Source of the DNA: a virus
Strand: one strand, 5' to 3'
DNA: 64,000 nucleotides
Virus record (IMG/VR): IMGVR_UViG_3300046777_002658
Span: 32,001 to 96,000 of that record
Position numbers and translations under genes: made by a program. Every line of letters starts with the position of its first letter. The stretch's first letter is position 1. Below, piece by piece: positions 29,959-47,511 of this stretch. Under the pieces are notes generated by a model. It was given only the letters and a program-made list of their open reading frames with translations, was not told where the DNA came from and ran no database searches.

Positions 29959-30069
29959 GTTGTTTACAAACGATAGGTACTACAAGCTATAAAGCACCAT
30001 ACTCACGACGAACGGTTCGTCGTGGGTATTTTTTATAGTCCGACAGCCGCTTAGACCAAGGAGGTTCGC

Positions 30070-33000
30070 ATGGCTTATCGACAACAACAAACCCTAGTTT
30101 GTTCAGCTAAGGCAGAGGTTCGCCAGAATCAACCCAGCCATAGCGCCGTTGATACAGCCGCGCCTTCTGGTCAAACTAACTGTTCGGGTAACGAAAACAA
30201 TTCTTCAAAGGTTTTAACCATGTCTTATTCCATGTCCGCTTTGTTACTTTCGTTGTCTATTGTCGTTAAAAGCGTAAAGAAGGTCGCTCCTTCTATGTCT
30301 ATGAGAAATAAAGTAGCAAGAGCCTCCAGGAAGGCTCAACAACGTTTGGCACGAGCCAAGCGCCAAGCCAGACAAGTCAAGAATGGCTGGCTGCGCTCCT
30401 CAGCGTATCAGAAGCTGTGTAGAGAGGCTGATCACGCCTCTCGTATCAGCTGCATCACTCCACCCGCCAGTAGTGCTGGTAAAGCTGGTTCATCCAGCAG
30501 ACCTATTGTTAAATACTCCCGCCTATCAGATGGCGAAGGGGTATATGCCTTGACCCCAGCAATCCGAGTGCACAGAACCTTTGTGGCGCCGGTCACACGC
30601 AGGGAACGACACCTTGCAGCTAGAGAGCAGCTTAAGGCTGCGGGACTGCTGCCTAACCAAGCCCCTGCTCTAGGCAAAGCTCTCAAGGAGCAACGTAAGG
30701 CTAAAGCCAAAGTTAAGTCCTTAACCTTTAGTCCCGTCGCACGTCCACGGGATATAGAAAAAGCTGCCCAGCAGCTAGAGAAAGCTGCTGCCAAAGCAGC
30801 AAGGCTTTCTGAAGTGGTTAAGGTTGCTGGGCACGCAGTAAGCAAGAAAAAAGAACAGAGAGAGGAAATCTTTGTTCAGAAAGTTGAGGCAGTAACCGCC
30901 CCTCCAACTCTCTTAAAACTGGCCGCAAGATGCCAACGGCTAAGACAGAGATATTACAAAAGTCAAGACGAGCAAGACTACAAAGTCTGGCAAGAAGCAG
31001 AGGAAGATTATGCCTTTCTCTGCAAGAAAAAAGAACAGAGAGAGGAAATCTTTGTTCAAGAGGTTGTCACTCCAGATGACTTCCTAGCGCAGTTGGAGTT
31101 CTTAAGAACTCAGCTAGACCAAAATATGGCGCCTCCTGTTGTGCCACAAGAGTTTGCTACTGCAGCAGCAGAGATTGTGGATGACTACAAAGCCCAGGCA
31201 GAAGCCACAGGCACAAAGGATATGACCATGCTTATGTCCCTTTCATCCCCCATCAAAAACTCTGCTGGAGAGGATGTACAGGTTATAACCATTACAGGTA
31301 ACTGGAGTGGCAACGAGATTGACCCACAACTAAAAGCAGCCAGTAAAGATGTGATGGTGAACTTAGTGGGCAAGAACAAACTGCAAAAAGCAGAGTTCAC
31401 AAAACGAGGCTTTGTTCTTGTTACACAAGAGTGGTATTGTTTACCACTAGAGCAAAATAAACAACTAATTAAGGAAACACCAGTGAGACCACCAATTGTT
31501 TCCAGAACCAGCTCAAACCCACCAAAGCTGGTTAAAACAGACAGGGCTGATGGTGTTAAGTACCTGCACCTTTACCCTAACAGTGTTACACCCAAAAACA
31601 TTAAGGAACTTCTAGCCGAGCCCAAAGAGCTAGAAGTGCTTGTTAACATTAGCTCTGAACGGCTAATAGTTGAGAACCGGGATAAGTTTGTAGAGTTTCT
31701 CAGAGCTAATGGCTTTGAGAATTACTCTACTCACGCTGACTGGTTAGTCCTGCCAGCAGGTAGAAAGTTTGCAGAAAGAGTAGTTAAAGCTGGGGTTGTT
31801 TTCTCTGAAGAAGAGGAGTCATTTAACAAACTGTGGGTAACAGTTGATGGGGTTGACTTAGTAGAAGCTACCTTAGCTCCTCGCAAACCAACAGAAAATA
31901 TGGATGATATAGAAAATGAAGAGTTGTGGAACCGATTGGGTATAGCAGAAGCTGTACGCCAAGCAGTTGCTACAGCTCTTTCTGATTATCTGTATGCTGA
32001 TGTTTGGTTTAGCTATGACACAAGCATATCTCTGGAAGTAACTGAGCTTTTAGCAGAGTTTGGCTTTGCTTCTAAGTATGACTGCTTCTTGTTAAAACCA
32101 GCATTAAGAGAGCCAGTTAACAAGGATGTCAAATCTATGTACATCACAGTACATACAAAAACCAAAGCTGGTGTAGCTTCAGGTTCTTTCACTGTGGGTG
32201 ACACCACTATCCCAGTGGAAGTAGACCAAAAAGCTACAGAGCCAGCTAACAGACTGCTCTGTGTTAAGCAAGCAATCGCTTACGCTATTAACGCTGGGGC
32301 AAAGGCTGTTTCGGTAGAAGTCAGCCACGCTAACTATGACCTGAACAAGTTAGCTGCATGGAAAGCTGCTGGCTTTAAAGGCAAGTCTAATGTTGAGTTG
32401 CTAAAAGATATTGAGTCTCTGACTCACTACCTTTCTGTTACCTGGGTAAACCCTAAGAACAAAGCCAAAGAAGTGGCTAATACTGTAGTAAGAGAAACTG
32501 TGGCACAAGTAACAAAGGTGCAGGCTTCCGTAACCACATCCCATAAAGTAATTGGTGGAGAGGCTTATGCAGAAGAAGGCTTACTGTATTACCCTAAAAT
32601 CCTGTTTAAAGAAACCAGAGACTTACTGCTTGAAGATCTTCAAGCAGTTCTTGACAGTGGTGCTGTTGAGAAAACCAGCTTTGGTCCCTACCAGTACACC
32701 TGTTTAGGTGACTACTACTGGACATGGGAAAACAAGAAGGGTGTCTACTCTACCACTCAACCAAATGGCTCTCCTGTCGCAGCTGTACCAAAGCGGCTGA
32801 GAGAAATTGTTGAAGTCTGGTTAAATGGAGAGTTAAAAGTTTGGGAGGGTCAGTACGTAGTAGAATCTTGCCTTGTAAACTTCTACGAAGGCAAGCAGAA
32901 GCTAAACTGCCATCAAGACATCTCTGAAGAGATTGATGCTCCTATTGTCTCTTTCTCCTTTGGTGCTACTGGTCGTTTCCTCATTCGTGAGGGAGCTCGC

Positions 33001-36000
33001 ACTGGTCGTATCTCTCATGAGTTCACTTTAAGTGACTCTGACTTACTTGTTATGTATGGCAAGCACAGATACTGCTGGCATGAGTATGCTGGCAACATTG
33101 AATCTGGTACAAGGATAAACTTAACCTTCCGCATGGTTAAGAAGCCTGTAGTAACCCAACCAGAGGTAAGAACTGTGGAGCAAAGGACTGTAAAAACAGA
33201 ACGTCTTGTTGATACTACTGCAGTGAAGCAGAATCAACAGCCTGCAGCAAGAACTGTTCAGGATAGAGTAAGGGTTAACCCAGACTTCAAGCCTCAACCC
33301 AGAGCAAAAACCTTGCCGGAGCCTGGTTTGCTACCTCAGTCAGAGGTTGGCAGAATCAGTGGCACTCCTCAAGGTTGCTCTCACATCTTTGACTTTAAAA
33401 ACAATGAGTCTAAGAAAGGTCTTGATGAGGTTATTGTAGCAGCTTTCGCTGTAAGGTTAGACCCCGTTAAAGGGCAGCCTGTAGAGTGTAACATTAACAC
33501 TCCCTCATATGCTTATAACGATGAGTTTACTCACTACGGGTATGAAGATACTCTTACCACTAAAAAGGGTGAGAATATGAATGTTATAAGCTTGGGTGCA
33601 GCCGCTACAAAGGCTCTACCAGCTCATCTGACACCAATTATACTTTCTGTTTGCAACCACTGTTTAAATGGTGTGCGAGAAGAGTTTATACCCACAGCTC
33701 TATCATCAGTGAACAGAGTTAACAAGAAGGCTAATCTGCAGATTATTCTTGGGCAACCAGGTGGTGAATCCTGCTTGACCAAAGAGAAAGCCATCCAGGC
33801 ACCAGAATCTAGCTCTAGACAAAAGATGGGAGCAGCTATACTAGAAGGTGAGTCTAAAGAAATCCCTTCCGTAATATTCCACGATGACGGACAGGGACAT
33901 ACTCCCACGTTTGTTAAGTTAGAATTTTCTGGAGATGGTCTAGAAACTATTCTTGCAGACGGTAAGAGACACATCTTTATCGTAGTTGCTTGGTACGACA
34001 AGAGCAAGCAAACTTACTTTGAGAAGGGGGGTAAGCAGTACAGAATCTACCCCCACACTGCTAGTGTCTTCCATGTTGATGACTTAGAAGCTGTCTTTGG
34101 TGGTCAGAAAGTATTTAAGTTTGATGAAAGAGCTCTTCTAGGGTTATCAGCAGAGCCTGTAGTTGAGGCTAAAGCTGTTAAACCAGAGGTTAAAGCTCTT
34201 AACAGACCTCTTATCAAACCAGAACCAACAAAAGCAACCTCTGAAGAGGTTACAGAAGTTCAACAGTCTGTTGATAAGGCAAATCTAGCCAAAGAGCTGG
34301 CAGATCTTCACAAAGCCACCAGATTAAAAGGTCTTCCACTGACCAAAGGTCTAACAGAAGAAGACTTAGAGAGCATATTTGTTTGCATGAGTCCTGATGG
34401 TCAGATAGCTCACAGAACTCTAAGCTACATCAAGTCCAGAACCGATGGCAAACCTGTGCAGCTGTTTGATTGGACTAAAGCTGATGTTCTTAAGGTAGCA
34501 AAAGTTTTTGTAGACCTTTTATCGCCTACAAAAGCAACAGCAGATCAACAGGTGTTCCGCTACCGCAATACTGAAGAGGGCTTGTTGCTTTCCTTTGACG
34601 CTGGAACTATTGAGTTCTTGATAGGCAATGATGGTCGTGCTTATAATGCTGCTGATGGTCGTGCCTTTGAGCAAGGCATGGAGCTGATAGGGTACAACGC
34701 TTTAGATATGTCTTGGTGGGACTCTCCAGAGTATGCTAAAGCTAAAGCAGCACTAGCCGCTGCGGGTAAGAAAGAACCTGAAAAAGATGTTTCTTACTTC
34801 CAAATAGTTAATGGAGAGGTTCAGACCAGAGAGGAGTACAAACCTGAAATCACAGATGTTTGTTTCTCCTCCTCCATCGGTAAGTTCATGCAGGCTTTCT
34901 GTGCTTACTTATTGATGTTTGCTCAAAGCAAGAACAACACTCGGGGGGGCTTGGGTGACAACTTTAAGATTCTTTTGAACAAGTGCGAGAGTGTTATCTC
35001 TATGACCGAAGGAGATATCCTTGGTCAAAATGGAGGTTTCTTGTACTCTGTGCAAAACAGTCCTAAACTGTACGTTCACAGAGAGCAGTGTGACATATTT
35101 GCACTAGAAGAAGACAAGCTGAAAGACTTGGCTAATTCAGTGGCAACAGTAGTCAAGGGTTATGATAAAAAGCCACCAGAAGAGATGCTCAAAGTGTCTT
35201 CCACTGACACTCAGTCTCTAGCTATGAAAGAAGCTTTCAAGAAGTATCCTGCTTTGGGCTTCCACTTTGCTAAGGGTACTTTTATCAATGGTCTGACCCA
35301 TCTCAGACTAGCTACTCTTCAAAAGTATGCTCCAAACTTGTTTAATAAGACTCTGCAACTAACAGGGTTATCAGTTGAGGCTGCTGTTGAAAGTGTTGTC
35401 TCTTTAACTCTAAAAGCTTCTAAGGGTGCTAAACGAGCAACTTTAGCCTTAGCCAGAGCTGTTGAAGTGTTAGGAGAAGTGAAAGCTGGCTGGGCTTTCT
35501 ATGGTCAAGAGAAGGTGCTGACAGGCTGGCTTGTGCAAGAGTGTATGGCTCCTACATTTGTCATGGCTCCTGGTATGTCCTTCTTCTTAGGCAATGAGGA
35601 GGAGAAACCAGTTGCTTTAGTCAAGAAGACTCAGACACAAAACTACCCCAAGTTCTTGGCTAGTAACCTTGCTGAGGCTGTGAGCATGACAGGCGTTACT
35701 GAGTATCAAAGATGCCTGGCAGATCACAGACCCACTCAAACCTATGATGAGGTTTCAGCAACCTACCGCATCACCTTTGATAAAGAGGTAAAGCTAATCA
35801 AAGGCACAGAAATTGCTTTTGTTAAAAAGGAAGAGGGTCAGGGAGCCGATGCCGTCATTATTTTCAATGACAACGAGAGAGCCACTCTCAATGAGATAAC
35901 CTGGAGAGTCCATAAGGATCTTGTAGGTGAGTCAGTCTTGGTAGTCAACTACTCTTACACCCTACACCACCGCAACCCTAAACTGCGTGGTGTCATCAAA

Positions 36001-39000
36001 ACCATGATGGCTTCCTGCAGTAAAGAGTTGTTGTACAACTTCTTTAATGAGCCAAAGTTAACAGCTTTGGGATTAAAGGACATCAAGCTAGTATGCCCGC
36101 AGGATACTATCAAGTCTGATATGCTGTACTCTTGGCTAATGGTGATAGGTAACACTATCAGACACAACGACCCAACTAACCCTCACATTGCTAAGTTGAT
36201 TAGCTTAAGAGATCAACTCAATGAAGAGATGATGGGTGGTGCTGATTACGACCCTGACACCATTGTCATTAACCCAGCAGCAGTAGTAGCTGGTCTCTAC
36301 TCTGACTTGATTGCTTATTTTGTTAAGCACTTTGGTCATTCCTTATGGATGCACGTTCAACAACCAGAAGACCAAGGAGAGATCATGAATCGCCTGTATG
36401 TTGACCGCGTTGCCCAAAAAGCTGGCTGGGTAGAAGTACCTAAGATAGCTTGGGGTGAGTATGAGGAGGCTCTAGCTACAGCTAGACGTATGGAAGGCTA
36501 TACAGTCAAGCTATACGCAGAGTCAGTTGATTATCTAAAGAATGACAAGCAGAATGCTTTGTTGTTTACTTTAGACGCTGATGGAGTGGTAGTTGAATAC
36601 TTCCATCGTTCGTTCTGTTTTGTGGGTGCTGAAGGAGCACCTGTCTATGGTGTAGAGCTATTCGAGTCTAGCACTGTGGCTGAGGCTATCTCTGACTCCA
36701 GACATATGCCACCATCTGTGCGTTCACTCTCTCGCATGGAAGGAGTTGCTTTTGATGATGCTTGGGCGCTTCTAAACGCTGGTAAAGAGAAGATGTTTAT
36801 GTCTTTGGTGATTGCTGGAATGTCATCCTGTGACAAGTTCAACTGCTCTAAGACAATAACAATCCTAGAGCGTGGTGCTGAGAAGGACAAGAACCTGATT
36901 CTCTCTCCAGAAGACAAGGATTATTTCAATAGCATTTTAGTTGAGAACAAAATCAGCTTGGATTTCCATGAAGAGGAGCAGTTTAAAGCTGTAGCTTATG
37001 CGTTCAGAGATATTGTGTTTGTAGCTAAAGGCAAGACCTACTGGCTACCTGCTTTGTTTGCTATCAACAGCTTGAAGTCTGAAAACTCTACAAACAACCT
37101 TGCTCAACAGTTCTTTAGAGATATTCTTGTTGAGTGTCTAGCTGGCAGAACTGTGCCCGCAATAGAAGGTTCAAGAGCTGCTGGTATCTTGGATAGTCTA
37201 TGTGACTCTGCTTCTACCAAGAAGTTAATCACTGCTGCTGATAATATGGCAGCCAAGCGGATTGCTCTGGCTCACATTCCTGCTGGAGAGATTCATATTC
37301 TCAAGAGTACACATCCTGCCAGTAACTACCAAAACCTGCTCAGACACAAGTTTGACTTGAAGAGCGTAGAGGCTGGTAAGTCTACTATCTTTGTTCACAA
37401 CTCTCGCGCTCCTCTAACAGATGGTTGTCTGTTAAAGCTTGTAATAGTAACAGAAGAGCAAAACAGTAAGAACTTCTGGAAGTTAGACTCTGACAGCTTT
37501 GCTCTTGGGAGTATGGGTAACGGCATGGACTTTGGTGACTTTGACGGTGACGGTCACTATTTTGTTCAGCTTGTGGGCACTGACTATACAGTATCTACCT
37601 TTGACAGCATTGCTGACTTTATCACTGATGCTGTTGGGTACAACATTTTCAACACCTATGCCAACCCAGAGAATAAGAAAGGAGAGCCAAACGAAGCTTA
37701 CCTAGCTGACCACTACAACATCAAGAAGTGGTCTAAGGTTGATGAAACCTTATGCAATATGGGAGTCAAGAAGGCTACAAAGTCTAGTGCTACCTACTTG
37801 ATGTATAACCAGAATGCGCGTGAGATGCAAGCCAAAGCAACTGGCATTGCATACTCTGTGTATATGTGGTCTGAACACCTTGTAGACATCCTTCTAGCGT
37901 ACAAGAAGCTAGGCGGTGTTTTACCATTTGGTTTTGAAGCTGCTGCTGATGGTAGTTTAGTAGCCCCTATCTCTCAAGTGTACGAAGTTATTCTTGGTGG
38001 ATTTTCAGACCCTGCTTGGGCAGTCTACACCAAATACTTCCTCAAAATGAAGGAAGGTGAGCGCACAGTGTTTGACCATAACTTAGCCGAGTTTAACAAA
38101 GACTTGATGGCTATGGGCATCACTGGTCAAAAGCAAGCAGGGTTTAGTGCTCTGATGTTTGCTTCTTACCACTTATTCTTTTTAGAGAAGTGGGGTGAGT
38201 TCAATGACTATGAAGTAGACATGGTTACTAAGAACCCACTACCTTTAGAACTAAAAGGTATGTTAGCCTGCGCGTTGGTTTCCTTTGAGCTGATGCGAGG
38301 TAAGTTCCAAGGGTTTGTTGGTGCTCTGGAAGTCGAGAAAGGTGGTAAGGTGACAGGTCACAAGACTGCTATGAACTTTGCTAGAACCTTCCTATTAAAC
38401 AATCCAGGCATGGTGAGTGAGTCATTAGTTTGTAAACAACTAGCTCAAACTATTGAGGTTTGTAATCACCTGCTAGAAGGTAAGCCTCGCCCAGAAAGAA
38501 CTCTTGCAACACCAGGAGTTATTCAAGAGCGCACTGTAGCTGTTCCTACTTCTAACTTGTCTGATGAGGCTTTACAGTATTTCTTAACTAAAGTAGGTGC
38601 ATCTGCTGTGGTTAAGGAGACTAATGACTCTGATGATGAAGGTGGCAGCAAGGTTAGTGCAGAACCTAATACTCCTGACAATGGAGATGGTGGTGCAGCT
38701 GTAGAAGCTATAGACTATGCTGCTTATCTAGAAACTGAAGAAGTTGCTGCTCCTACAATTGAAGAGCTTGTGTCTGTTAGTTCTGCGGTAGTTGAAGAAT
38801 ACTACTCTGAGTCAGAGCTAGAAGAGCCAGAGTTTGCTGCTACCCCAGCTGTTCTTACAACATCTGAACCAAGCAGCTCACAGTATGAGTTTGATGCAGA
38901 TGGTTTTCTTGTAAATTGGCTAGACCACGCGCTTGCCACTATAAACTGGCAAGAAGAAACTCTTGTGATTGACTACACAGGTTCTAAACCTTGTTACTTA

Positions 39001-41826
39001 CTCAAGGGTGAAGGTCTCAAGTTGCACTCTTTAGTATCAAAAGGTTGGGGAGGAGCCTACTACTTTGAGGGCTTAGGAGAAGATAAAAAGGCTCCAGTCA
39101 TCTTTATGGATCAAAGTGTTGAAAGAACCGTGAAGGCAGACCAAGAGTTTAATGAGTTAGTGAGTTCTTGGGCTGAGTGGGCTGGAGAAACTATCGAGGC
39201 GCCAGAAGAGTTCTCAAAAGTCCTGATGGTCAGAGGTGAGGTAATAATCATTGAAGATGAAGATGAAGAAGAGCCAGTACAATCAGAGGTAATAGAGAAT
39301 GGAACAAAACAGAAGATGGCGACGTTAATGCAAGTGGTAGAACAACTACCAGAGTCTGCTTTAGATAAGCTACTAGCTGAGGGTGAAAGGCTACTAGCAG
39401 AATTAACCAAAACTAAAGAGCCAGTAAGAGAGGCTCTTAAAACAATAGAACCTACTGTTACCTGTACTTCCTGCTTAACAGTAGCAGAACCAGTTACTGA
39501 TGAAGCACCCTCTATAGACATACCTAGTGAAGGGACACAAAAGCAGTCAATAGTTAGTTTTACCTCCAGAACTAAGAGGGCTGACAAACCAGAAGTAACG
39601 AACAGTTCGTCAAGAGAGATTCTTCAAGCTGAGTCTGTTGTAGAAAATGTTGAAGTTGTAAAAGCTCATCCTTTAGATGGTCTTGCACCTTTGAGGTCTT
39701 CCACAGCAAAACACATGATTAAAGACATAGCTATGGCTGCTGTGGCTACTCAGTTCATTGGTACAAGTGCTGTATCTAAACCTTCTAGCACAGAGCTTTA
39801 CAGACAAGCCTGGGCTGATTGGAAAAGTGGTTGTGCCAACACAGGTGTCTACACTGCTGCTGACGTAGTAATGGTATCTGGTAACGGCTTGGGGAGGGCT
39901 ACAGAGGCTCAAATAGTAGAAACCTTTGCAAAGAGCTATATCCCCTACCTGTTGTTGGTAATCAATGCCAAAGCCACAGTAGTAGTTGGTGACTGTCCTG
40001 GTATGGACTGTTGTGTCAGAGATTACTTAGTGGGGCATGGCTATCAAAATACATGGGTTGCTGCCAAGATTGGTGGTTATAACAGACTCACACCTCCCAC
40101 CCAGCGAGAAAGAAAACTTGAGAGAGCTGTAGTTAAACAGTCTGTAGAAGCTGTAAAGATTCAACCAGAAGGAGACTGGGTTGAGGCTCTTGTTAGTAAG
40201 TTAGAGCCTTGGACTGGTAACCAGATAAAGAAAGCTCTAGCAACTCTTAGCTCTGAGCAGTTAGAGGCTGCTAGAATCATCATCCAACACGCTCTAAGCA
40301 ACACTACCGCTAAAGTTGCAGAGTTAGACCCTAAAGACGTGGTGGGTGGTCACATCCTCACTGGTAAAGCTGGTACTGGTAAAACCTACGCTACTCTTGT
40401 AATCATCATAGTCCTAGACTTGCTAGGCTTTCGTGTGGTAGCTTGCGGAACCACGGGTCTGGCTAGTCAAAATCTCAAAAACTCTTCTGGTACAATAAAC
40501 AGGGTTTTAAGCTTGGGTACAGGCTTTGAAGAGAGAAAAGATACTGAGGGAAACCTGCTGCCAAGAACTGAGGCAGACATTAGCCAGATAATACTCAAAA
40601 TGAGTAAGGATGGTAAAGTAGCCAAAAGACTATCTGAGCAAAGCAACAACAAGAACTATATAGGAGTAGTTCTGCTAGTTGATGAAGCCTTTATGCTTGG
40701 AGGAGATTTAGGTATCGCCGCTGCTGAGGGCTTAAAGACCATTGTTGGGCTAGAAGCTCAAAATGGTAAAGTCCGTCAGAGACCTATTCAGTTATTAATG
40801 GTTGGAGATCCTAAGCAGCTAGAACCAGTAAAAGACAGAATGATATTCGAGGAAGGTGAGTTCCTAGAATATTCTGACAGCACAGAAGTTCAGAAATACC
40901 ACGCTTTTACAGACCGTCTGAATCTAAAGGTTATTAAGCTAGAGAAGAACGAAAGGCAGTCTGGTGATACTGCTTTTGGCTTAGAGTTGGACTTGCTGGG
41001 AGAGGGTAAAGCTAAAACAGACCTGAGTAACTGTCCTGTTTTGTTGAGTAGATTTAAGGCTTCTCTCTCATGCCAACCCGCAGATGCTTTGCATATCATC
41101 TACAATAATGATGAAGTTGCCAAGTTTAATAAGTCTAAGCTAGACGAGCTTGTCAAAAAAGGTGCTTTCAAAAGAAAGTTTGAGGCAATTATTGACTCTA
41201 GTAGATGTGGCGAGAGTGAATTGCTATCTTACGTTGCTCCTACTCCTAGAACTTTAGAGTTAGTAGTGGGTGCTCCTGTCAGAGTAACCCAAAACATCCC
41301 TAAGAACGATGGCACAGACAATCTGTTAGTAGCTAATGGCGAGCGCGGAGTTGTGGCAAGCATGACCAAAGACAAAGTGACCGTCAAGTTCAAGGATGGT
41401 CGCTTTGAGGAGCTAGAAGCTGTAGAATCCAGAAAAATTCCGGTAGACGAAAATGGTGCACCAATAGGATCTTTCAGACAGCTTCCCTTATGCTTGTGTT
41501 GGGCTACTACTTTTCATGGTAGCCAAGGTCAAACCTACCCTAAAGGTGAACCTGTCATAGTGCATATGTACTCTCGTAAGGGAGGTAAGCATGATGGAGA
41601 GCTTCAAAGAGTATGGTCTAACAACGCGTTCTACGTTGCTTGTAGCCGCGTAACCCGCTCTAAAGACTTATTCTTTTACACCGGGTTGGGTGTTGATGAA
41701 AAAGCTGAAGGAGTGACTGATGAGGAGTTCACCAAGCAAAGGATGAACACTTACTTCAATCACTTCAAGCAAAGCTACAGATTCAATGAGAAGGCTATTG
41801 CTTGGTTAAACAAGCAGTCCTGCTAG
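30070..41826 (+). CDS. Giant 3918-aa multidomain protein: AlkB-like dioxygenase + single-chain two-barrel RNA polymerase + possible SLOG domain + Pif1/RecD-like SF1B helicase
   Basis: AAGGAGG RBS. HQD (32911), H (33079), RINLTFR (33112-33132) = AlkB. SRAP (37402-37413) 44 aa before DFDGD (37537-37551) = RNAP active centre. GKAGTGKT (40363-40386), DEAFM (40681), GDPKQLEPV, HGSQGQT, YVACSRV = helicase motifs. Confidence 0.8.
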   Translation: MAYRQQQTLVCSAKAEVRQNQPSHSAVDTAAPSGQTNCSGNENNSSKVLTMSYSMSALLLSLSIVVKSVKKVAPSMSMRNKVARASRKAQQRLARAKRQARQVKNGWLRSSAYQKLCREADHASRISCITPPASSAGKAGSSSRPIVKYSRLSDGEGVYALTPAIRVHRTFVAPVTRRERHLAAREQLKAAGLLPNQAPALGKALKEQRKAKAKVKSLTFSPVARPRDIEKAAQQLEKAAAKAARLSEVVKVAGHAVSKKKEQREEIFVQKVEAVTAPPTLLKLAARCQRLRQRYYKSQDEQDYKVWQEAEEDYAFLCKKKEQREEIFVQEVVTPDDFLAQLEFLRTQLDQNMAPPVVPQEFATAAAEIVDDYKAQAEATGTKDMTMLMSLSSPIKNSAGEDVQVITITGNWSGNEIDPQLKAASKDVMVNLVGKNKLQKAEFTKRGFVLVTQEWYCLPLEQNKQLIKETPVRPPIVSRTSSNPPKLVKTDRADGVKYLHLYPNSVTPKNIKELLAEPKELEVLVNISSERLIVENRDKFVEFLRANGFENYSTHADWLVLPAGRKFAERVVKAGVVFSEEEESFNKLWVTVDGVDLVEATLAPRKPTENMDDIENEELWNRLGIAEAVRQAVATALSDYLYADVWFSYDTSISLEVTELLAEFGFASKYDCFLLKPALREPVNKDVKSMYITVHTKTKAGVASGSFTVGDTTIPVEVDQKATEPANRLLCVKQAIAYAINAGAKAVSVEVSHANYDLNKLAAWKAAGFKGKSNVELLKDIESLTHYLSVTWVNPKNKAKEVANTVVRETVAQVTKVQASVTTSHKVIGGEAYAEEGLLYYPKILFKETRDLLLEDLQAVLDSGAVEKTSFGPYQYTCLGDYYWTWENKKGVYSTTQPNGSPVAAVPKRLREIVEVWLNGELKVWEGQYVVESCLVNFYEGKQKLNCHQDISEEIDAPIVSFSFGATGRFLIREGARTGRISHEFTLSDSDLLVMYGKHRYCWHEYAGNIESGTRINLTFRMVKKPVVTQPEVRTVEQRTVKTERLVDTTAVKQNQQPAARTVQDRVRVNPDFKPQPRAKTLPEPGLLPQSEVGRISGTPQGCSHIFDFKNNESKKGLDEVIVAAFAVRLDPVKGQPVECNINTPSYAYNDEFTHYGYEDTLTTKKGENMNVISLGAAATKALPAHLTPIILSVCNHCLNGVREEFIPTALSSVNRVNKKANLQIILGQPGGESCLTKEKAIQAPESSSRQKMGAAILEGESKEIPSVIFHDDGQGHTPTFVKLEFSGDGLETILADGKRHIFIVVAWYDKSKQTYFEKGGKQYRIYPHTASVFHVDDLEAVFGGQKVFKFDERALLGLSAEPVVEAKAVKPEVKALNRPLIKPEPTKATSEEVTEVQQSVDKANLAKELADLHKATRLKGLPLTKGLTEEDLESIFVCMSPDGQIAHRTLSYIKSRTDGKPVQLFDWTKADVLKVAKVFVDLLSPTKATADQQVFRYRNTEEGLLLSFDAGTIEFLIGNDGRAYNAADGRAFEQGMELIGYNALDMSWWDSPEYAKAKAALAAAGKKEPEKDVSYFQIVNGEVQTREEYKPEITDVCFSSSIGKFMQAFCAYLLMFAQSKNNTRGGLGDNFKILLNKCESVISMTEGDILGQNGGFLYSVQNSPKLYVHREQCDIFALEEDKLKDLANSVATVVKGYDKKPPEEMLKVSSTDTQSLAMKEAFKKYPALGFHFAKGTFINGLTHLRLATLQKYAPNLFNKTLQLTGLSVEAAVESVVSLTLKASKGAKRATLALARAVEVLGEVKAGWAFYGQEKVLTGWLVQECMAPTFVMAPGMSFFLGNEEEKPVALVKKTQTQNYPKFLASNLAEAVSMTGVTEYQRCLADHRPTQTYDEVSATYRITFDKEVKLIKGTEIAFVKKEEGQGADAVIIFNDNERATLNEITWRVHKDLVGESVLVVNYSYTLHHRNPKLRGVIKTMMASCSKELLYNFFNEPKLTALGLKDIKLVCPQDTIKSDMLYSWLMVIGNTIRHNDPTNPHIAKLISLRDQLNEEMMGGADYDPDTIVINPAAVVAGLYSDLIAYFVKHFGHSLWMHVQQPEDQGEIMNRLYVDRVAQKAGWVEVPKIAWGEYEEALATARRMEGYTVKLYAESVDYLKNDKQNALLFTLDADGVVVEYFHRSFCFVGAEGAPVYGVELFESSTVAEAISDSRHMPPSVRSLSRMEGVAFDDAWALLNAGKEKMFMSLVIAGMSSCDKFNCSKTITILERGAEKDKNLILSPEDKDYFNSILVENKISLDFHEEEQFKAVAYAFRDIVFVAKGKTYWLPALFAINSLKSENSTNNLAQQFFRDILVECLAGRTVPAIEGSRAAGILDSLCDSASTKKLITAADNMAAKRIALAHIPAGEIHILKSTHPASNYQNLLRHKFDLKSVEAGKSTIFVHNSRAPLTDGCLLKLVIVTEEQNSKNFWKLDSDSFALGSMGNGMDFGDFDGDGHYFVQLVGTDYTVSTFDSIADFITDAVGYNIFNTYANPENKKGEPNEAYLADHYNIKKWSKVDETLCNMGVKKATKSSATYLMYNQNAREMQAKATGIAYSVYMWSEHLVDILLAYKKLGGVLPFGFEAAADGSLVAPISQVYEVILGGFSDPAWAVYTKYFLKMKEGERTVFDHNLAEFNKDLMAMGITGQKQAGFSALMFASYHLFFLEKWGEFNDYEVDMVTKNPLPLELKGMLACALVSFELMRGKFQGFVGALEVEKGGKVTGHKTAMNFARTFLLNNPGMVSESLVCKQLAQTIEVCNHLLEGKPRPERTLATPGVIQERTVAVPTSNLSDEALQYFLTKVGASAVVKETNDSDDEGGSKVSAEPNTPDNGDGGAAVEAIDYAAYLETEEVAAPTIEELVSVSSAVVEEYYSESELEEPEFAATPAVLTTSEPSSSQYEFDADGFLVNWLDHALATINWQEETLVIDYTGSKPCYLLKGEGLKLHSLVSKGWGGAYYFEGLGEDKKAPVIFMDQSVERTVKADQEFNELVSSWAEWAGETIEAPEEFSKVLMVRGEVIIIEDEDEEEPVQSEVIENGTKQKMATLMQVVEQLPESALDKLLAEGERLLAELTKTKEPVREALKTIEPTVTCTSCLTVAEPVTDEAPSIDIPSEGTQKQSIVSFTSRTKRADKPEVTNSSSREILQAESVVENVEVVKAHPLDGLAPLRSSTAKHMIKDIAMAAVATQFIGTSAVSKPSSTELYRQAWADWKSGCANTGVYTAADVVMVSGNGLGRATEAQIVETFAKSYIPYLLLVINAKATVVVGDCPGMDCCVRDYLVGHGYQNTWVAAKIGGYNRLTPPTQRERKLERAVVKQSVEAVKIQPEGDWVEALVSKLEPWTGNQIKKALATLSSEQLEAARIIIQHALSNTTAKVAELDPKDVVGGHILTGKAGTGKTYATLVIIIVLDLLGFRVVACGTTGLASQNLKNSSGTINRVLSLGTGFEERKDTEGNLLPRTEADISQIILKMSKDGKVAKRLSEQSNNKNYIGVVLLVDEAFMLGGDLGIAAAEGLKTIVGLEAQNGKVRQRPIQLLMVGDPKQLEPVKDRMIFEEGEFLEYSDSTEVQKYHAFTDRLNLKVIKLEKNERQSGDTAFGLELDLLGEGKAKTDLSNCPVLLSRFKASLSCQPADALHIIYNNDEVAKFNKSKLDELVKKGAFKRKFEAIIDSSRCGESELLSYVAPTPRTLELVVGAPVRVTQNIPKNDGTDNLLVANGERGVVASMTKDKVTVKFKDGRFEELEAVESRKIPVDENGAPIGSFRQLPLCLCWATTFHGSQGQTYPKGEPVIVHMYSRKGGKHDGELQRVWSNNAFYVACSRVTRSKDLFFYTGLGVDEKAEGVTDEEFTKQRMNTYFNHFKQSYRFNEKAIAWLNKQSC

Positions 41827-42054
41827 TAAACTGAGGGGTTCCTCAACCCCTCCTGTCCAGCTTTATTAAACACCATTGACAGAAAGTCCCAATGTCCTGT
41901 ACCCTTAATATAGAAAAAAAGAATAAAGAGTGTAAACACCACTTTGAGAAGCTAGTTTGATATCTTTCACCCCTCAGATATCTGGTGATAACTAGCTTCT
42001 CTTTCTTTAGAAAAAAAGAAGAGTGTTTGCAATATTCTTTAAAGGTTTCAAATC

Positions 42055-42684
42055 ATGTCTTTATTACAATTGTCTCTAGAAGCTGGTGTTCCAAAATTCT
42101 GTGTTGACCAAATTGCTCAAGGTGATGGTCGCATTACTTTTGAGGCATCTGATTTGGAAATGTTGACCTTTAAGGTCTGGAACGTCTATGAGGACACACC
42201 AGGTCAATTCCAGATGATGGTGACCTTCCAAGGTCATTGTCTTGGTGAGTATGAGTTGCAAAGTCTACCTGAAGACCTTCACACCTTAGAGCAGCAGCCT
42301 GGGTATTTTAAACTATCTGGGTATATCCTGGAAGTTGCGGAAGACGTGCCTGCTGAGGTAGCTGCAGCAATGTCTGCTTTTGCTCAATGGAGCAAAGAAA
42401 ACAAGGGTGTCAAAAACCCTGCTAATCGTCCTCACTTATTTTATAAAGTGGCTAGTGCAGAAGCGTTAATTCAGTTAGTTGTGTGTTCTAGCTATAACAA
42501 GTCTACCAAAGTTAACGAGCTCAGCTTTAACGGCTGGGCTTACCAAGGCCTGGAATGGGCTGGAAACGGAATAGGTAGCATCAAAGCTACCAAGACTGGT
42601 ATAAGTGGTTATACCAGAAAGGTGCTGCCTCCAGCACCTGTAGCTCCCCCAGCTCCCCCAGCTCTTACTCTTAAGTCACGATAG
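42055..42684 (+). CDS. Hypothetical protein
   Basis: 209 aa, ATG 44 bp after the class II motif at 42011. Confidence 0.7.
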   Translation: MSLLQLSLEAGVPKFCVDQIAQGDGRITFEASDLEMLTFKVWNVYEDTPGQFQMMVTFQGHCLGEYELQSLPEDLHTLEQQPGYFKLSGYILEVAEDVPAEVAAAMSAFAQWSKENKGVKNPANRPHLFYKVASAEALIQLVVCSSYNKSTKVNELSFNGWAYQGLEWAGNGIGSIKATKTGISGYTRKVLPPAPVAPPAPPALTLKSR

Positions 42685-42880
42685 GGGGTAATAAACCAAT
42701 TGATCTACTAAAGACCAATTGGTTTATTATTATTTTGTTGTACACAGCCCGGCGGGGACTACAGAGCCTCCAGCGATCGCTCTTTGGACAGGTGACAGAG
42801 AGAAAGGGGTGTACATCTAAATCTTCCTTTCTTAGAAAAAAAGAAGAGGGAATGGAATTATTAGTATTAAAGGAACAATC

Positions 42881-43294
42881 ATGACTAACGTATACTTCTT
42901 CTCCCGCCACGAAGCTCAAGAAGCAATGGTATCTGACTTGGGTGGAACTATCACTCAACAGTTCCGAGGCACAATCTCTAATGTTAAGCGTGTTGGTGAC
43001 GGCATTGAGTTCCAAGAGATTCCATTAGGTGAAACAGCTCCTGTGGTACACACAATTCCTGCCGATTCTATAGTCGTTGCTGTAGCTCCTCTGCCTTTAC
43101 AAGAGGCTTGGCTGAGAGCTGGTGTTTCTGTGTTCCTTGCGCCACAGAACAAGCGCGAGACCACAGAGTCTGGTGAAGTAGTTTTTAACTACGCAGGGCT
43201 GTTACAAGTCCTGAAGATTGAAGTAGTAACCCAACAGTGGGTTGGTACTGCTGTTAGTCTAGAGGACAAGCACGCCGAGCGTAGTGCTTTATAA
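42881..43294 (+). CDS. Hypothetical protein
   Basis: 137 aa, AAGGA RBS, 45 bp after a class II motif. Confidence 0.7.
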   Translation: MTNVYFFSRHEAQEAMVSDLGGTITQQFRGTISNVKRVGDGIEFQEIPLGETAPVVHTIPADSIVVAVAPLPLQEAWLRAGVSVFLAPQNKRETTESGEVVFNYAGLLQVLKIEVVTQQWVGTAVSLEDKHAERSAL

Positions 43295-43375
43295 AGAATG
43301 TTGGGAGCGATCGCGCTCTCACTTTCTTTTAAAGAAAAAAAGAATAGTGAGTGGAACTTATTTTTTTAAAAGTAT

Positions 43376-43585
43376 ATGTGGTCAACAACTATATCCAACC
43401 CACCTCTACCAGGATGGGTGCTACCAGATGGTAGCAAAATACTTGAAGTATTTGATGGAGATGTAAACGCCCTCCACCAGGTGTACATGGGTATAGCAAA
43501 GGTTGAATCCCCAACGGGGGAAGTAAGAATTGTGAGGGCTGACTGGTGGGTATCACCGGATGGCTCTCTGTTTATTGAGCTTTGA
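43376..43585 (+). CDS. Hypothetical small protein
   Basis: 69 aa, 41 bp after a class II motif. Confidence 0.55.
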   Translation: MWSTTISNPPLPGWVLPDGSKILEVFDGDVNALHQVYMGIAKVESPTGEVRIVRADWWVSPDGSLFIEL

Positions 43586-43651
43586 ATTTAGTTAACTCAT
43601 TAGAGTATTAACCTAATGAGTTAACTCTTTTTTTTGATATAAAAAAGAATA

Positions 43652-43861
43652 GTGAATGAAATTATTAGTATTAAAGGAACAATCATGACAGAGCAAGAAA
43701 TTTTACAATTGGCTTCTCTTTTAGAAAGAGCCAAACAAGCATTAACCTCTCCCTCAGGCTGTTTGCCTGAGTTCATTTATGTAGAGAAAGGTAAGGGGGA
43801 AATAAAGGGTTACACACCCTATATTGCAAATGGGGGGGCAAACTTTCTTTTCCCTCTCTGA
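43652..43861 (+). CDS. Hypothetical small protein; probable start ATG 43685
   Basis: Leader identical to that of 42881. Confidence 0.55.
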   Translation: MNEIISIKGTIMTEQEILQLASLLERAKQALTSPSGCLPEFIYVEKGKGEIKGYTPYIANGGANFLFPL

Positions 43862-43991
43862 GGAGGGAGAGGTAATTAAAGTAGAATCCGCAATCTACTA
43901 ATATTAATGGTTAAAGAAGAAGAAAAGAATTAACTCCTTCTTTAACCATTAATATTTTTTTTGTAAAAAAAAGAATAGTGGGTGCAATATT

Positions 43992-44192
43992 ATGGAGTTT
44001 TCTATGACTCGCGAAGAAGCTTTAAACACTAACTTAGTGCAAACCGGCGACTACTTCGTCTACAAAGTGGTCCAGGTTAAAGAAACAACAGTAGTTGTAA
44101 CTCCCTACAAGGGGGAGCAGTGGGGTGAGCAGTGGGGTGAGCACAATGAGTACAGGCTAGACAGCCTGTACCCCTACGATGGGGCTTTATAG
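43992..44192 (+). CDS. Hypothetical small protein
   Basis: 66 aa after a class II motif; EQWG repeated. Confidence 0.55.
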   Translation: MEFSMTREEALNTNLVQTGDYFVYKVVQVKETTVVVTPYKGEQWGEQWGEHNEYRLDSLYPYDGAL

Positions 44193-44316
44193 TAACTGGG
44201 GGAAGCAATCCCCTTTTAAGAAAAAAAAGATAAATGAATGAAGTTTGTAACTCTAGGAGTTATCATGACCGCATTTATTTATATTCTCTTAGTTTACTTT
44301 TATCTGTGGGCTATGG

Positions 44317-44559
44317 ATGCCCACACTCGAGATTAAAGGGAAAAAGAAAGTAATGAGAAAAGTAAGTAATTTAGAGTTTAACCTAGCAACCAGCGGACAC
44401 GCCTGGCTGCTGGAATTAGAAGTAAACAACCAGGTAGTAGCCTCCCAGCTACTACTACTTGAGGAGCCGCCGCTCCTCAAACAGCAGAGGGAGTTTCGTG
44501 CGGAACACCCCCTTCAACATGGGGGTGTTGTGAAGTTTCATCCTGTAGTAAGGGAGTAA
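44317..44559 (+). CDS. Hypothetical small protein
   Basis: 80 aa, followed by a hairpin. Confidence 0.45.
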   Translation: MPTLEIKGKKKVMRKVSNLEFNLATSGHAWLLELEVNNQVVASQLLLLEEPPLLKQQREFRAEHPLQHGGVVKFHPVVRE

Positions 44560-44623
44560 CTTTGATTGCCTATCTAATCTCTGGATAGGCAATCGCGCTC
44601 TCTTTCAAAGAAAAAAAAGAATA

Positions 44624-44977
44624 GTGGATGGAATTGTCACACCAAAACTTACAATGAGAAAAACATCAGAAGAGTTGAAAGAAATAAGAAAACAGAAGAG
44701 AATAGCAGCCTGTCAAGCTGCTATAGAAAAATATAACAGGTTGGACAAACCTGTTTATGCTTACACCACAAGTTGTGGTGACCCGTGGGTTCCAGAAAAG
44801 GAAGTTGCCCTTCCCCTATATTGGGAGGAGGAACACAAGGAACTAAAGTTTTACACAGATTTTCTGTGGGGGATACTCAATGCTATTAACTATGAAATCC
44901 CTGACTGTGATTCTTCAACAGTAGTATTTAGGGAAAGAGGGGAGGGGGGAAAGATTGAAGAAATTATAACGGAGTGA
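44624..44977 (+). CDS. Hypothetical protein; probable start ATG 44654
   Basis: ATG 43 bp after a class II motif. Confidence 0.6.
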   Translation: MDGIVTPKLTMRKTSEELKEIRKQKRIAACQAAIEKYNRLDKPVYAYTTSCGDPWVPEKEVALPLYWEEEHKELKFYTDFLWGILNAINYEIPDCDSSTVVFRERGEGGKIEEIITE

Positions 44978-45058
44978 AGGAGGGGCTGGCGCGGGCTGGC
45001 TCTTTTTCTTCAAAAAAAGATAAGTGAATGAAATAATATTTTCTAAGGAGAAGCAATC

Positions 45059-45592
45059 ATGGCTATTTTAAACTTTAGAGGTCACACACAAGAAGTAGAG
45101 ACTCTTAACAACCAAGAGTTCACTGCTCCCGTTGTTAGAGTAGTAAACTCCAACAGTTACTGGTATAGAGCTTACTTAGAAGATGGCAGTATAGTTCAGT
45201 TCATACTTCCCCAAGTAGAAGACAGTTTTAAGTTTATAAACTGTCTTTTAAAATATAAAGGACATGAACTTCATGTCCTTCTCAAAGAGGAAGAGTTTCC
45301 TGACTCTTCGATAGTCTCCATCTCCTTTACTAAAAGATACTGCAAAGCAGTATATAAAAATGGAGAGGCAGTGGAGTTTAGGTTTTTCAAGTACGAAGAT
45401 TCTATCCCGTTTAGGGATAACTTTCCGCTTGAAAAATACAAAGCAGCCCTAGCTGCAAAAACAATGGTTGAGCAGGCTATCTTTGAATACCAAAAGGAGA
45501 TGGAAAAACTAGGAGCCGTGAACTGCTATGACTCGACAGAGTCGTGGTTAGAGATAGAAGATATTCCAGACTATGAGTGGAATCTCTTTTAA
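45059..45592 (+). CDS. Hypothetical protein
   Basis: 177 aa, AGGAG RBS, after a class II motif. Confidence 0.7.
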   Translation: MAILNFRGHTQEVETLNNQEFTAPVVRVVNSNSYWYRAYLEDGSIVQFILPQVEDSFKFINCLLKYKGHELHVLLKEEEFPDSSIVSISFTKRYCKAVYKNGEAVEFRFFKYEDSIPFRDNFPLEKYKAALAAKTMVEQAIFEYQKEMEKLGAVNCYDSTESWLEIEDIPDYEWNLF

Positions 45593-45702
45593 TCTGCGGA
45601 GTGCTGCAAGAACACCTTTTCTACCTATCTTCCATCACCAAGATAGGTAGAAGGCTTCCAGCCCTTTAAAGAAAAAAGATAAGTGAATGATAAGAAGAAG
45701 CA

Positions 45703-45963: not shown

Positions 45964-46005
45964 CCTCCCCTCCCTCTAACTCAACGTAAGGTAAAGGAAG
46001 AAATA

Positions 46006-47484: not shown

Positions 47485-47511
47485 AGGGAATTTTGTTAAA
47501 GAGAGGGAAGC

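Follow-up and report, generated by a model that had tools for sequence, protein, structure and literature searches.

The window analysed here, a stretch of 64,000 nucleotides from an uncultured phage with a genome of ~197 kb (196,877 bp), carries a giant open reading frame, P0001, in which an AlkB domain, a two-barrel polymerase and a helicase are joined in one chain, with catalysis predicted for the polymerase. The gene and its surroundings are laid out as follows.

29996..30054, + strand: hairpin, T-run and ACAGCCGCTTAG element, 16 nt 5' of the P0001 ATG
30070..41826, + strand: giant ORF P0001, 3,918 aa, with an AAGGAGG Shine-Dalgarno sequence 5 nt 5' of the ATG
32578..33132, + strand: AlkB-type 2OG-Fe(II) oxygenase domain, aa 837-1021 (Pfam PF13532, E 1.9e-28; NCBIfam AlkB)
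35392..38169, + strand: predicted two-barrel polymerase core, aa ~1775-2700 (65 representative clusters match; AlphaFold2 pLDDT 90.1; best structural matches RNA polymerases only)
39667..40104, + strand: DUF4326-type domain region, aa ~3200-3345 (PF14216 precomputed on close homologues)
40351..41772, + strand: SF1B helicase (Dda/RecD2/Pif1-like), aa 3428-3901 (PHROG 325, E 1.6e-35; Pfam AAA_30/AAA_19)
42012..60100, + strand: ~25 copies, all on this strand, of an A-rich motif containing AAAAAAGAATAGTGAATGGAA, candidate promoter class of the phage polymerase

About 75% of P0001 falls outside the polymerase core, and no domain was assigned to its first 830 residues by searches that included Pfam and PHROGs. 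Homology searches retrieved 76 relatives (65 clusters at 50% identity), of which 38 carry the SF1B helicase C-terminal to the core. The AlkB domain is found in some relatives only and lies occasionally C-terminal to the core, and the DUF4326-type segment, not matched directly in the Pfam search of P0001 (PF14216), is common to 12 relatives. The large share of the chain outside the core and the unassigned N-terminal stretch would suit a degenerate, non-catalytic polymerase-like scaffold within a large injected or structural protein, but standalone core relatives of 1,400-1,500 aa with no further recognised domain also exist.

Sequence searches offered little guidance to the nature of the core. 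Nothing in Pfam, NCBIfam or PHROGs matched this region, and PDB sequence searches linked it to no known polymerase. With hhalign, the motif regions alone aligned to YonO, gp66 and E. coli beta/beta' (P 0.013-0.27), R2446-A-P2448 falling onto E. coli beta' NRAPTLH at a weak P of 0.018; a 105-sequence YonO alignment gave no profile similarity (P 0.013-0.32), and the family profile did not match phi14:2 gp66. Across the 196,877-bp genome, PF05183, PF00562 and PF00623 had no matches, and neither a T7-type nor a Pfam-recognisable multisubunit RNA polymerase was found. Similarity to cellular RNA polymerases is equally faint in YonO, phi14:2 gp66 and P23-45 gp64/gp96, which are proven phage transcriptases (PMC5467207, PMC10770324).

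Within the core, the following elements were delimited from alignment and model.

35401..36696, + strand: beta/Rpb2-like module, aa 1778-2209, with predicted hybrid-binding region and double-psi barrel B (VIA Z 10.8; Foldseek)
35413..35436, + strand: basic helix K1782-x2-K1785-x2-K1788-R1789, 5' of barrel B (K/R in 50-52/56; model helix 24-33)
35614..35967, + strand: beta-rich insert in barrel B, aa 1849-1966 (model 90-207: 3tbi_B Z 5.5, 1bdo Z 5.3)
35977-36000, + strand: PKLRGVIK, aa 1970-1977
35980..36000, + strand: basic loop K1971-x-R1973-x3-K1977, directly after the beta-rich insert (56/56)
36082-36114, + strand: IKLVCPQDTIK, aa 2005-2015
36103..36120, + strand: D2012-x2-K2015-x-D2017 (D2012 and K2015 56/56; D2017 53/56)
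36604..36666, + strand: Q2179-R2180 ... E2199, last conserved strands of barrel B (R2180 55/56, E2199 56/56; model strands 415-425, 434-440)
37240..37593, + strand: predicted double-psi barrel A, beta'/Rpb1-like, aa 2391-2508 (generic DPBB Z 7.7-8.7; RNAP largest subunits Z 8.4-9.6)
37249-37299, + strand: AAKRIALAHIPAGEIHI, aa 2394-2410
37399-37413, + strand: NSRAP, aa 2444-2448, including R2446-A-P2448 (37405..37413), the R-x-P of barrel A (56/56)
37534..37551, + strand: G2489-D-F-D-G-D2494, candidate Mg-binding Asp triad (56/56)
37786..37908, + strand: 41-residue helix, aa 2573-2613, bridge-helix candidate (helix 814-854 in model 1, 215-255 in model 2)
37951..38052, + strand: two helices, aa 2628-2661, with invariant Y2638-E2639-x2-L2642-G-G (alignment and model)

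The five motifs from which a sequence-only reading had proposed a polymerase (PKLRGVIK, IKLVCPQDTIK, AAKRIALAHIPAGEIHI, NSRAP and GDFDGD) all stand where it had placed them, in frame in ORF 30070-41826 (+), and its numbering of D2490/D2492/D2494 is correct, GDFDGD being aa 2489-2494. Its span of aa 1961-2500 encloses only the basic loop, the Asp triad and what lies between them, but the conserved folded core is wider (aa ~1775-2700), and family conservation extends to ~aa 2810.

Conservation was assessed in 56 homologous segments of 20-86% identity, many at just 20-30%, in a local L-INS-i alignment. Invariant in all 56 are K1971, R1973, K1977, D2012, K2015, R2446, P2448, G2489, D2490, D2492, G2493 and D2494, together with G1835, E2199, Y2638, E2639 and L2642; MAFFT alignment A1 gives the same invariant columns. 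Taken singly, motifs this short would attract no notice in a chain of 3,918 residues, and the estimated probability of meeting one D-x-D-G-D by chance in ~3,900 residues is a few percent. Coincidence as the source of the motifs is nonetheless rejected, with practically no probability left to it, because the motifs are conserved across 56 homologues and the VIA matches of the fold are nearly all RNA polymerases. Catalytic-type residues kept this strictly in such divergent sequences also point to chemistry as the target of selection, making the scaffold reading highly improbable, although the barrel-B acid varies: no invariant counterpart of Rpb2 D837 or QDE-1 D709 stands at the expected place after P-G1835 in the 56 sequences, and D/E occurs within the 6-10 residues that follow in 45/56 only.

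The basic residues, flagged beforehand as less certain than the Asp triad, are invariant in the family and are placed after the beta-rich insert like Rpb2 K979/K987. By analogy, they may be the counterparts of Rpb2 K979/K987 and QDE-1 R738/K743 and are candidate contacts for the NTP and the RNA 3' end. The RAP-to-DFDGD spacing had been described as close to that of cellular beta', which does not hold: R2446 to D2490 spans 44 residues, against 35 in E. coli beta' (R425 to D460), 43 in YonO and 45 in QDE-1 (R962 to D1007) (PMC2919709). The P0001 spacing is therefore closer to single-chain enzymes than to cellular beta'.

The fold was predicted by AlphaFold2 for aa 1760-2700 (model 1, 941 residues) and for the C-terminal half alone (model 2). 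Model 1 has a pLDDT of 90.1 and a pTM of 0.88, and a VIA search of 48,161 PDB chains found 19 at Z of at least 8, nearly all RNA polymerases; Z values of 9-12 are clear yet not overwhelming given a 941-residue model. QDE-1 (11.8 in this search) and maize RDR2 match the whole model (Z 11.7-12.1, 317-386 residues aligned), as do the phage polymerases P74-26 gp62 (Z 9.5) and P23-45 gp96 (Z 9.4), and Pol I A135 (10.3), plastid beta (10.2), vaccinia Rpo132 (9.2) and Rpb1 (8.7) are also recovered. Foldseek returned 99 matches at E<=1e-3 (lowest 4e-5), those listed being all second-largest RNA polymerase subunits. Model residues 19-450 (aa 1778-2209) align to Rpb2 760-1105 (VIA Z 10.8, 268-286 residues), residues 618-941 to Rpb1-type subunits and residues 632-749 to generic double-psi beta-barrels. 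The C-terminal half alone matches largest subunits, beta' included, at Z 9-9.6 (Pol I A190 9.6, 278/342 aligned; Sulfolobus A' 9.5; Rpb1 9.1), as well as generic double-psi beta-barrels, and QDE-1 and gp62 at Z 6.2 and 6.5; each of its best 50 Foldseek matches is either a largest subunit or P23-45 gp96. The beta-like then beta'-like barrel order proposed for one chain is supported by these halves, and the barrel pair, put to AlphaFold2 with Foldseek and VIA, matches RNA polymerases almost exclusively. A single-chain two-barrel RNA polymerase fold is thus supported by the models for aa ~1775-2700, and the P0001 core is a member of a family of these predicted single-chain enzymes that had not been described before. 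The barrel B insert resembles the E. coli beta-flap (3tbi_B) and a biotinyl domain (1bdo) with moderate scores, only suggestive of a flap/SBHM-like element. Alignments to Rpb1-type chains run through the 41-residue helix, and the helices at aa 2628-2661 appear to occupy a trigger-loop-like position.

The same fold could also belong to a helicase-coupled RNA synthase acting on ssDNA or RNA, in replication priming or counter-defence RNA synthesis. QDE-1, which such an enzyme would resemble, has the QDE-3 helicase and RPA as its partners, and single-stranded nucleic acids are the substrates of AlkB. A preference for ssDNA templates is known for QDE-1 and gp66; over the whole model the closest matches are two RNAi enzymes, QDE-1 and RDR2, and half of the family sequences carry the fused helicase. 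By halves, however, the model is nearer to the DNA-dependent multisubunit enzymes, and the flap-like insert is reported missing from the RdRP/YonO group (PMC7824862). A PolD-like DNA polymerase or other dNTP-using enzyme, serving replication or repair with its fused helicase, would share the two-DPBB core known in PolD (PMC7281927), and fusion to a helicase and to AlkB hints at DNA repair. This is a very remote prospect, since neither VIA search of 48,161 chains, both dominated by RNA polymerases, lists a PolD chain among its best 50, and the genome has a PolA-like gene in a separate replication cluster.

Two strand-specific motif classes flank the P0001 gene. The ACAGCCGCTTAG element near its start is the last copy of a class spanning 25.9-30.1 kb. 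The AAAAAAGAATAGTGAATGGAA motif (25 matches vs 2.6 expected) has its first copy 186 nt 3' of the P0001 stop and lies mostly 25-45 nt before start codons; relative L006, whose core is ~50% identical, keeps it at the same place. Sigma70-like promoter matches around P0001 are not enriched (18 vs 22 expected). The phage has a sigma-70 r2 gene of its own at another place in the genome, so some of these private motifs could serve the host RNA polymerase with that factor. The genome also holds a DnaG-type zinc-ribbon ORF (genome position 168,067) and a DnaB-like gene; with the PolA-like gene, replication therefore has its own candidates. The genome yielded no Toprim or Prim-Pol domain, which would favour an RNA synthase for priming, but the zinc-ribbon ORF and a position between two motif regulons, which fits a transcription cascade, count against that alternative, which is unlikely.

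Altogether, aa ~1775-2700 probably form a two-barrel, DNA-dependent phage RNA polymerase that works without sigma, is insensitive to rifampicin and is produced after infection, and P0001 is most likely a non-virion, sigma-independent phage transcriptase. The predicted chain would run from the basic helix, a candidate duplex-binding helix (cf. PMC10770324), through barrel B with its flap-like insert and K1971/R1973/K1977 and a connector to barrel A (R2446-x-P2448 and the Asp triad), the bridge-helix-like helix and the trigger-loop-like helices. D2490/D2492/D2494 would hold the catalytic Mg2+, as in every studied superfamily member, and contacts to the incoming NTP and the RNA 3' end would fall to the basic residues. 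The polymerase would transcribe the downstream small-gene block, with the A-rich motif before each gene. Of its fused partners, the SF1B helicase would serve to open the template or keep it clear, and the AlkB domain would reverse alkylation damage in template or transcript.

Among known systems, phi14:2 gp66, a crAss-like virion RNA polymerase, is likewise a giant phage protein with a two-barrel core visible by motif and structure only, but it has DFDID in place of GDFDGD, is virion-packaged and has no hhalign match to the family; gp66 (6VR4) is absent among the best 50 structural matches listed, and it may nonetheless be similar in structure. Multisubunit polymerases provide the best per-half matches (Rpb2 760-1105, Z 10.8; A190, Rpb1 and beta', Z 8.6-9.6) and share the flap-like insert in barrel B, and the beta-then-beta' order in one chain recalls the Rpb2::Rpb1 fusion Orf6 of yeast killer plasmids (PMC2919709). 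They differ in core size (~2,500 residues vs ~900), in spacing (35 vs 44), in their PF00562/PF00623 matches and beta NGYNxED acid motif, absent from the P0001 core, and in alpha and omega partners, none being evident for P0001. QDE-1, RDR2 and YonO also hold both barrels in one chain, and the spacing agrees (43-45 in QDE-1 and YonO); they lack profile similarity to P0001 and are reported to lack the flap-like insert, and QDE-1 is matched poorly by the C-terminal half alone and has D709, whose equivalent is not conserved in P0001. In P23-45/P74-26, the non-virion enzyme is gp64/gp62, and the virion enzyme gp96 is fused to the tape measure (PMC10770324). Sequence similarity to the P0001 core was not detected, and P0001 differs in its flap-like insert, in a C-terminal half nearer to cellular largest subunits (Z 9-9.6) than to gp62 and in forming part of a 3,918-aa chain that also contains AlkB, DUF4326 and SF1B helicase. 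The likeness lies in a single chain that runs from barrel B through a connector to barrel A and the bridge helix (PMC10770324), and in genome logic. Upstream of P0001, a second giant ORF (9425-21187) has an invariant GDxDGD and, as had been noticed earlier, IYSVISPSQIK at aa 1463 as a parallel to IKLVCPQDTIK; it is a putative polymerase, and hhalign between the two giants did not show paralogy (P 0.03). As in P23-45/P74-26, a giant virion-module protein with GDxDGD would thus be accompanied by a second polymerase gene ~9 kb off, and the phage sigma r2 gene could serve late genes.

The central part of P0001, one of two giant proteins encoded in the window, is supported by residue conservation and by its predicted fold as a two-barrel polymerase core, held in a single chain and belonging to an undescribed family. 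The viral record from which the window comes is 196,877 bp long and is estimated to be 94% complete.

Features of the window and of its source genome (G000:C1; the last three lie outside the window)
2.8-8.1 kb: genes for the major head protein, head protease and portal
9425-21187 (+): P0002, the virion-module giant, 3,920 aa, adjoining the structural genes
30070-41826 (+): P0001, 3,918 aa
P0001 aa 837-1021: AlkB-type oxygenase domain, from domain searches
P0001 aa 3428-3901: C-terminal SF1B helicase (Dda/RecD2/Pif1-like), from domain searches
G000:C1 117822-118034: sigma-70 region-2 (r2) protein (E 1.5e-17)
G000:C1 134241-140394: replication cluster whose DnaB-like and split PolA-like matches are weak
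G000:C1 168067-168222: DnaG-type zinc-ribbon ORF, 427 aa

Between the AlkB and helicase domains of P0001, no domain is recognised by Pfam, PHROGs or NCBIfam. It is in this interval that the sequence-only reading had proposed a two-barrel RNAP core from a handful of short strings, every one of which is indeed present in frame.

Strings quoted in the sequence-only reading and their positions in P0001
aa 1970-1977: PKLRGVIK
aa 2005-2015: IKLVCPQDTIK
aa 2394-2410: AAKRIALAHIPAGEIHI
aa 2444-2448: NSRAP
aa 2489-2494: GDFDGD

Relatives were found by an exhaustive phmmer search (query aa 1620-2815), which returned 65 clusters by representative, defined at 50% identity (E <1e-30 for 23 of them), all unannotated and none within the phage reference set searched, and by a word-indexed search giving 16 long relatives, several from contigs of about 200 kb. 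No match was obtained by tblastn against 50,697 phage records, a scan of IMG/VR recovered no relative besides the window's own record, and an ESM-Atlas feature search returned noise (ankyrin matches at 0.78). The core common to the family corresponds to P0001 aa ~1775-2670. When 56 homologous segments, many of them only 20-30% identical, were aligned locally with L-INS-i, the columns invariant in all 56 were G1835, K1971, R1973, K1977, D2012, K2015 and E2199 in the beta-like half, and R2446, P2448, G2489, D2490, D2492, G2493, D2494, Y2638, E2639 and L2642 in the beta'-like half; the same columns were recovered in separate MAFFT alignments. The motifs first noticed from sequence alone are therefore the residues under strongest selection, and this invariance excludes their occurrence by chance.

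Sequence searches gave no link to known polymerases. Searches of PDB sequences with the protein (phmmer) and with the family HMM gave only a helicase match and nothing polymerase-related, and Pfam recognised only helicase families in 25 family members. PF00623 (RNA_pol_Rpb1_2), PF00562 (RNA_pol_Rpb2_6) and PF05183 (RdRP) had no match above the curated cut-off in the 196,877-bp genome while their controls were detected; PF00940 (T7-type) had none either, but its control was also detected nowhere, which makes that result uninformative. Profile alignments (hhalign) of the family with gp66 (the RNAP of phi14:2, a phage of crAss-like type), YonO of SPbeta, a 105-sequence YonO alignment and E. coli beta/beta' were never significant, and the parts that aligned to known polymerases were the motif regions, R-x-P and D-x-D-G-D. 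YonO and the P23-45 enzymes likewise have few residues in common with cellular RNAPs (PMC5467207, PMC10770324), and such faint similarity is usual for the two-barrel superfamily. No giant combining RNAP, helicase and AlkB was found described in the literature, and this family may already be one of the 23 aligned in PMC10770324 (its Supplementary Data 3).

The fold of aa 1760-2700 was predicted with AlphaFold2 from a 42-sequence alignment (mean pLDDT 90.1, pTM 0.88; model number = aa - 1759). Foldseek against the PDB returned 99 matches at E<=1e-3 (best 4e-5), and those listed are all second-largest RNAP subunits (Rpb2, A135, beta). Rescoring by VIA placed the RNAi polymerases maize RDR2 (Z 12.1) and QDE-1 (Z 11.7) ahead of Rpb2 (Z 10.8). 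The QDE-1 match comprises 386 residues and covers both barrels (model 19-941 with QDE-1 660-1144), and Rpb2 760-1105 aligns to model 19-450 over 268-286 residues at Z 10.8. A VIA search of 48,161 representative chains, independent of Foldseek, gave 19 chains at Z>=8, nearly all of them RNA polymerases: QDE-1 (11.8), Pol I A135 (10.3), plastid beta (10.2), Xanthomonas beta (9.6), P74-26 gp62 (9.5), P23-45 gp96 (9.4), vaccinia Rpo132 (9.2) and Rpb1 (8.7, on model 618-941). Barrel A (model 632-749, aa 2391-2508) is matched by the largest RNAP subunits at Z 8.4-9.6, and generic double-psi barrels (Cdc48-N, the designed 7dww) match the same segment at Z 7.7-8.7. Two moderate matches fall on model 90-207, one to the E. 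coli beta-flap (Z 5.5) and the other to a biotinyl domain of SBHM type (Z 5.3). A PolD-like DNA polymerase was also considered, and no PolD is among the top structural matches.

When aa 2359-2700 were folded alone (pLDDT 81), each of the top 50 Foldseek matches was either a largest RNAP subunit or gp96 (E 7e-3 to 7e-2). By VIA this half-model matches Pol I A190 at Z 9.6 with 278 of 342 residues aligned; at the level of segments, the alignment pairs 13-342 of the half-model with A190 422-1658 and spans a 41-residue helix and the helices that follow it. Sulfolobus A' (Z 9.5), Rpb1 (9.1) and M. tuberculosis beta' (8.6) come next, with gp62 at 6.5 and QDE-1 at 6.2. The fold searches recover both barrels, and the single-chain two-barrel core proposed by the sequence-only reading is supported.

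Elements of the P0001 core, in order
K1782/K1785/K1788/R1789: basic helix
P-G1835: in barrel-B strands
aa ~1849-1966: beta-rich insert in barrel B
K1971-x-R1973-x3-K1977: invariant basic loop immediately after the insert
D2012-x2-K2015-x-D2017: conserved string
Q-R2180 and E2199: last barrel-B strands
aa ~2210-2385: connector
aa 2391-2508: barrel A, with R2446-A-P2448 and the Asp triad
aa 2573-2613: 41-residue helix, candidate bridge helix by position
After this helix: two helices with Y2638-E-x2-L-G-G, candidate trigger-loop region

Single-chain two-barrel enzymes are described as running from barrel B through a connector to barrel A and a bridge helix (PMC10770324), and the P0001 core, with its candidate bridge helix, would have the same order. 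Eight 'universal' residues of two-barrel polymerases have been set out (PMC2919709); among them, R-x-P, the three Asp and two basic residues are found here. The triad D2490/D2492/D2494 lies in a loop preceding a barrel strand (model 736-742), and the R-x-P to triad spacing is 44 in P0001, compared with 43 in YonO, 39 in gp66, 45 in QDE-1 and 35 in E. coli beta'. In Rpb2, K979 and K987 directly follow the wall. We infer from position alone that K1971/R1973/K1977 are their counterparts; the basic residues, initially regarded as less certain than the triad, prove to be invariant, and a one-to-one correspondence with K979/K987 is suggested by position. The barrel-B acid (Rpb2 D837, QDE-1 D709) has no invariant column after P-G1835 in the 56 sequences. 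An Asp or Glu occurs at +6 to +10 after P-G1835 in 45 of the 56, where E. coli beta has NGYNFED, and D2012 and E2199 are invariant acids elsewhere in the beta-like module; E1843-1845, D2012 or E2199 may provide the barrel-B acid function.

P0001 is most likely a non-virion transcriptase that the phage itself supplies and that acts together with the helicase in the same chain; its enzymatic activity, template, timing and promoter assignment are putative. A role as primase is weakened by the separate DnaG zinc-ribbon ORF; Toprim and Prim-Pol domains were not found in the genome. When both searches are pooled, an SF1B helicase follows the core C-terminally in half of the family sequences (38/76), which makes the polymerase-helicase pair the recurrent unit; AlkB occurs in 8/76 at a variable position, before or after the core. 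Forms of ~1,400-1,500 aa carry the core with no recognisable partner.

P0002 is a candidate second two-barrel polymerase. Its 12 homologues all retain R1422, D1426, K1429-G-P, K1473, R2664..P2668 and G2726-D-x-D-G-D2731, the triad reading DNDGD, DYDGD or DFDGD; hhalign between the P0001 and P0002 families is not significant, and aa 499-553 of P0002 give weak PLD-like matches (Pfam, E 0.056; DrmC of NCBIfam, E 2e-4). The giants lie 8-10 kb apart, an arrangement kept in two relatives, L006 and L004. The P23-45-type scheme pairs a virion giant RNAP with a non-virion RNAP, and P0002, known here from sequence, adjoins the head, portal and protease genes; it may belong to such a two-polymerase scheme.

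Two classes of repeated motif flank P0001. Upstream, a composite element is present in five to six copies (25949-30054, +), the last just 5' of the P0001 ribosome-binding site and ending 16 nt before the ATG. It begins with a hairpin rich in GC, such as CGACGAACGGTTCGTCG, and continues with a T-run, ~8 nt and ACAGCCGCTTAG. Terminator-like hairpins number 43 in this region versus 16 expected, and the element might combine a terminator with a promoter or else be a hairpin promoter of the N4-like kind. Three other features were observed on this side:
25693-25854 (+): six tandem copies of the 23-nt unit AGAAAAGCAAAGGCGGAGCTGGG, intergenic, where minus-strand genes switch to plus; possibly iterons or a regulator-binding array
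28178-28347 (+): Pro/Ala-rich repeat of CCAGCA/CCCGCA units encoding (PA)n, within a 217-aa ORF (27811-28464) in the class-I motif region
28796-29902 (+): gene with an anti-repressor (Ant/KilAC-type) domain (PHROG 130, E 4e-32), immediately 5' of P0001

Downstream, an A-rich motif of ~30 nt (consensus ...AAAAAAGAATAGTGAATGGAA... / ...CTCTTT..AAAGAAAAAAAGAATAGTGAATGGAAT...) occurs in ~25 copies between 42012 and 60100, all on the plus strand. The block starts 186 nt after the P0001 stop codon and reaches ~60 kb, and the copies mostly stand 25-45 nt before start codons of small plus-strand genes (25 matches versus 2.6 expected). Exact copies number 21 in the genome, all on the plus strand, 15 of them inside the block. 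The small-gene block ends with genes for a deoxynucleoside monophosphate kinase (PHROG 139, E 6e-44) and a DHH phosphoesterase (PHROG 4771, E 2e-68) at 61027-63639 (+). In L006, whose core is ~50% identical, 18 copies of the motif fall within the 10 kb that follow the giant (L006:22351-32351) and three within the preceding 22 kb. In L004 (27% identical) it is absent from the 10 kb after the polymerase-helicase giant (L004:17122-27122), where six copies of a different repeat, CAAACATGTTTTT, are found instead; motif and polymerase may thus vary together. The A-rich motif is a candidate phage-polymerase promoter class, and matches to sigma-70-type promoters are not enriched.

A more far-reaching reading, which we regard as tentative and less likely than not, is that of a self-contained helicase-coupled transcription machine: a minimal beta-beta' fusion using SF1B and AlkB instead of sigma, within a two-polymerase cascade with private promoters. 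The core would then be structurally nearer to cellular RNAP than the YonO/QDE-1 clade is, through its flap-like insert and Rpb1-type C-terminal half; the covalent SF1B helicase would open the template and AlkB repair would clean it, together replacing a sigma factor; and P0001 and P0002, the latter at the tape-measure position, would form the cascade. If true, this would represent a new architectural solution to the opening of promoters, and it would offer a new intermediate from which to consider the origin or reduction of multisubunit RNAPs.

Sigma-less two-barrel enzymes prefer single-stranded templates in vitro, and how they reach double-stranded phage DNA is an old question that the helicase fusion makes directly testable; the neighbouring motif regulons supply candidate promoters for in vitro work.

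Among two-barrel enzymes, QDE-1 and RDR2 score highest on the whole model because each covers both barrels within a single chain; when the halves are compared separately, the closer resemblance is to multisubunit RNAPs. Membership of a crAss-like gp66 group was set aside (the gp66 triad reads DFDID, no profile match was obtained and it is not among the structural matches listed, which is not evidence of absence). RdRPs and YonO-like proteins reportedly lack a flap (SBHM) insert (PMC7824862); barrel B of P0001 contains a beta-rich insert that is flap-like at moderate Z scores. Given the multisubunit-like halves and this insert, the family is treated as a separate lineage, possibly nearer to the multisubunit-like clade as far as moderate Z scores on a predicted model suggest. 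To our knowledge, single-chain two-barrel RNAPs are few, namely YonO, crAss gp66, P23-45 gp64/gp96, and QDE-1 and its relatives, and each has altered views on the minimal size of a cellular-type polymerase and on how RNAi polymerases arose. To these the family adds a core of ~900 residues that is more beta/beta'-like in appearance than the known phage enzymes, a variant of an established polymerase type rather than a new principle.
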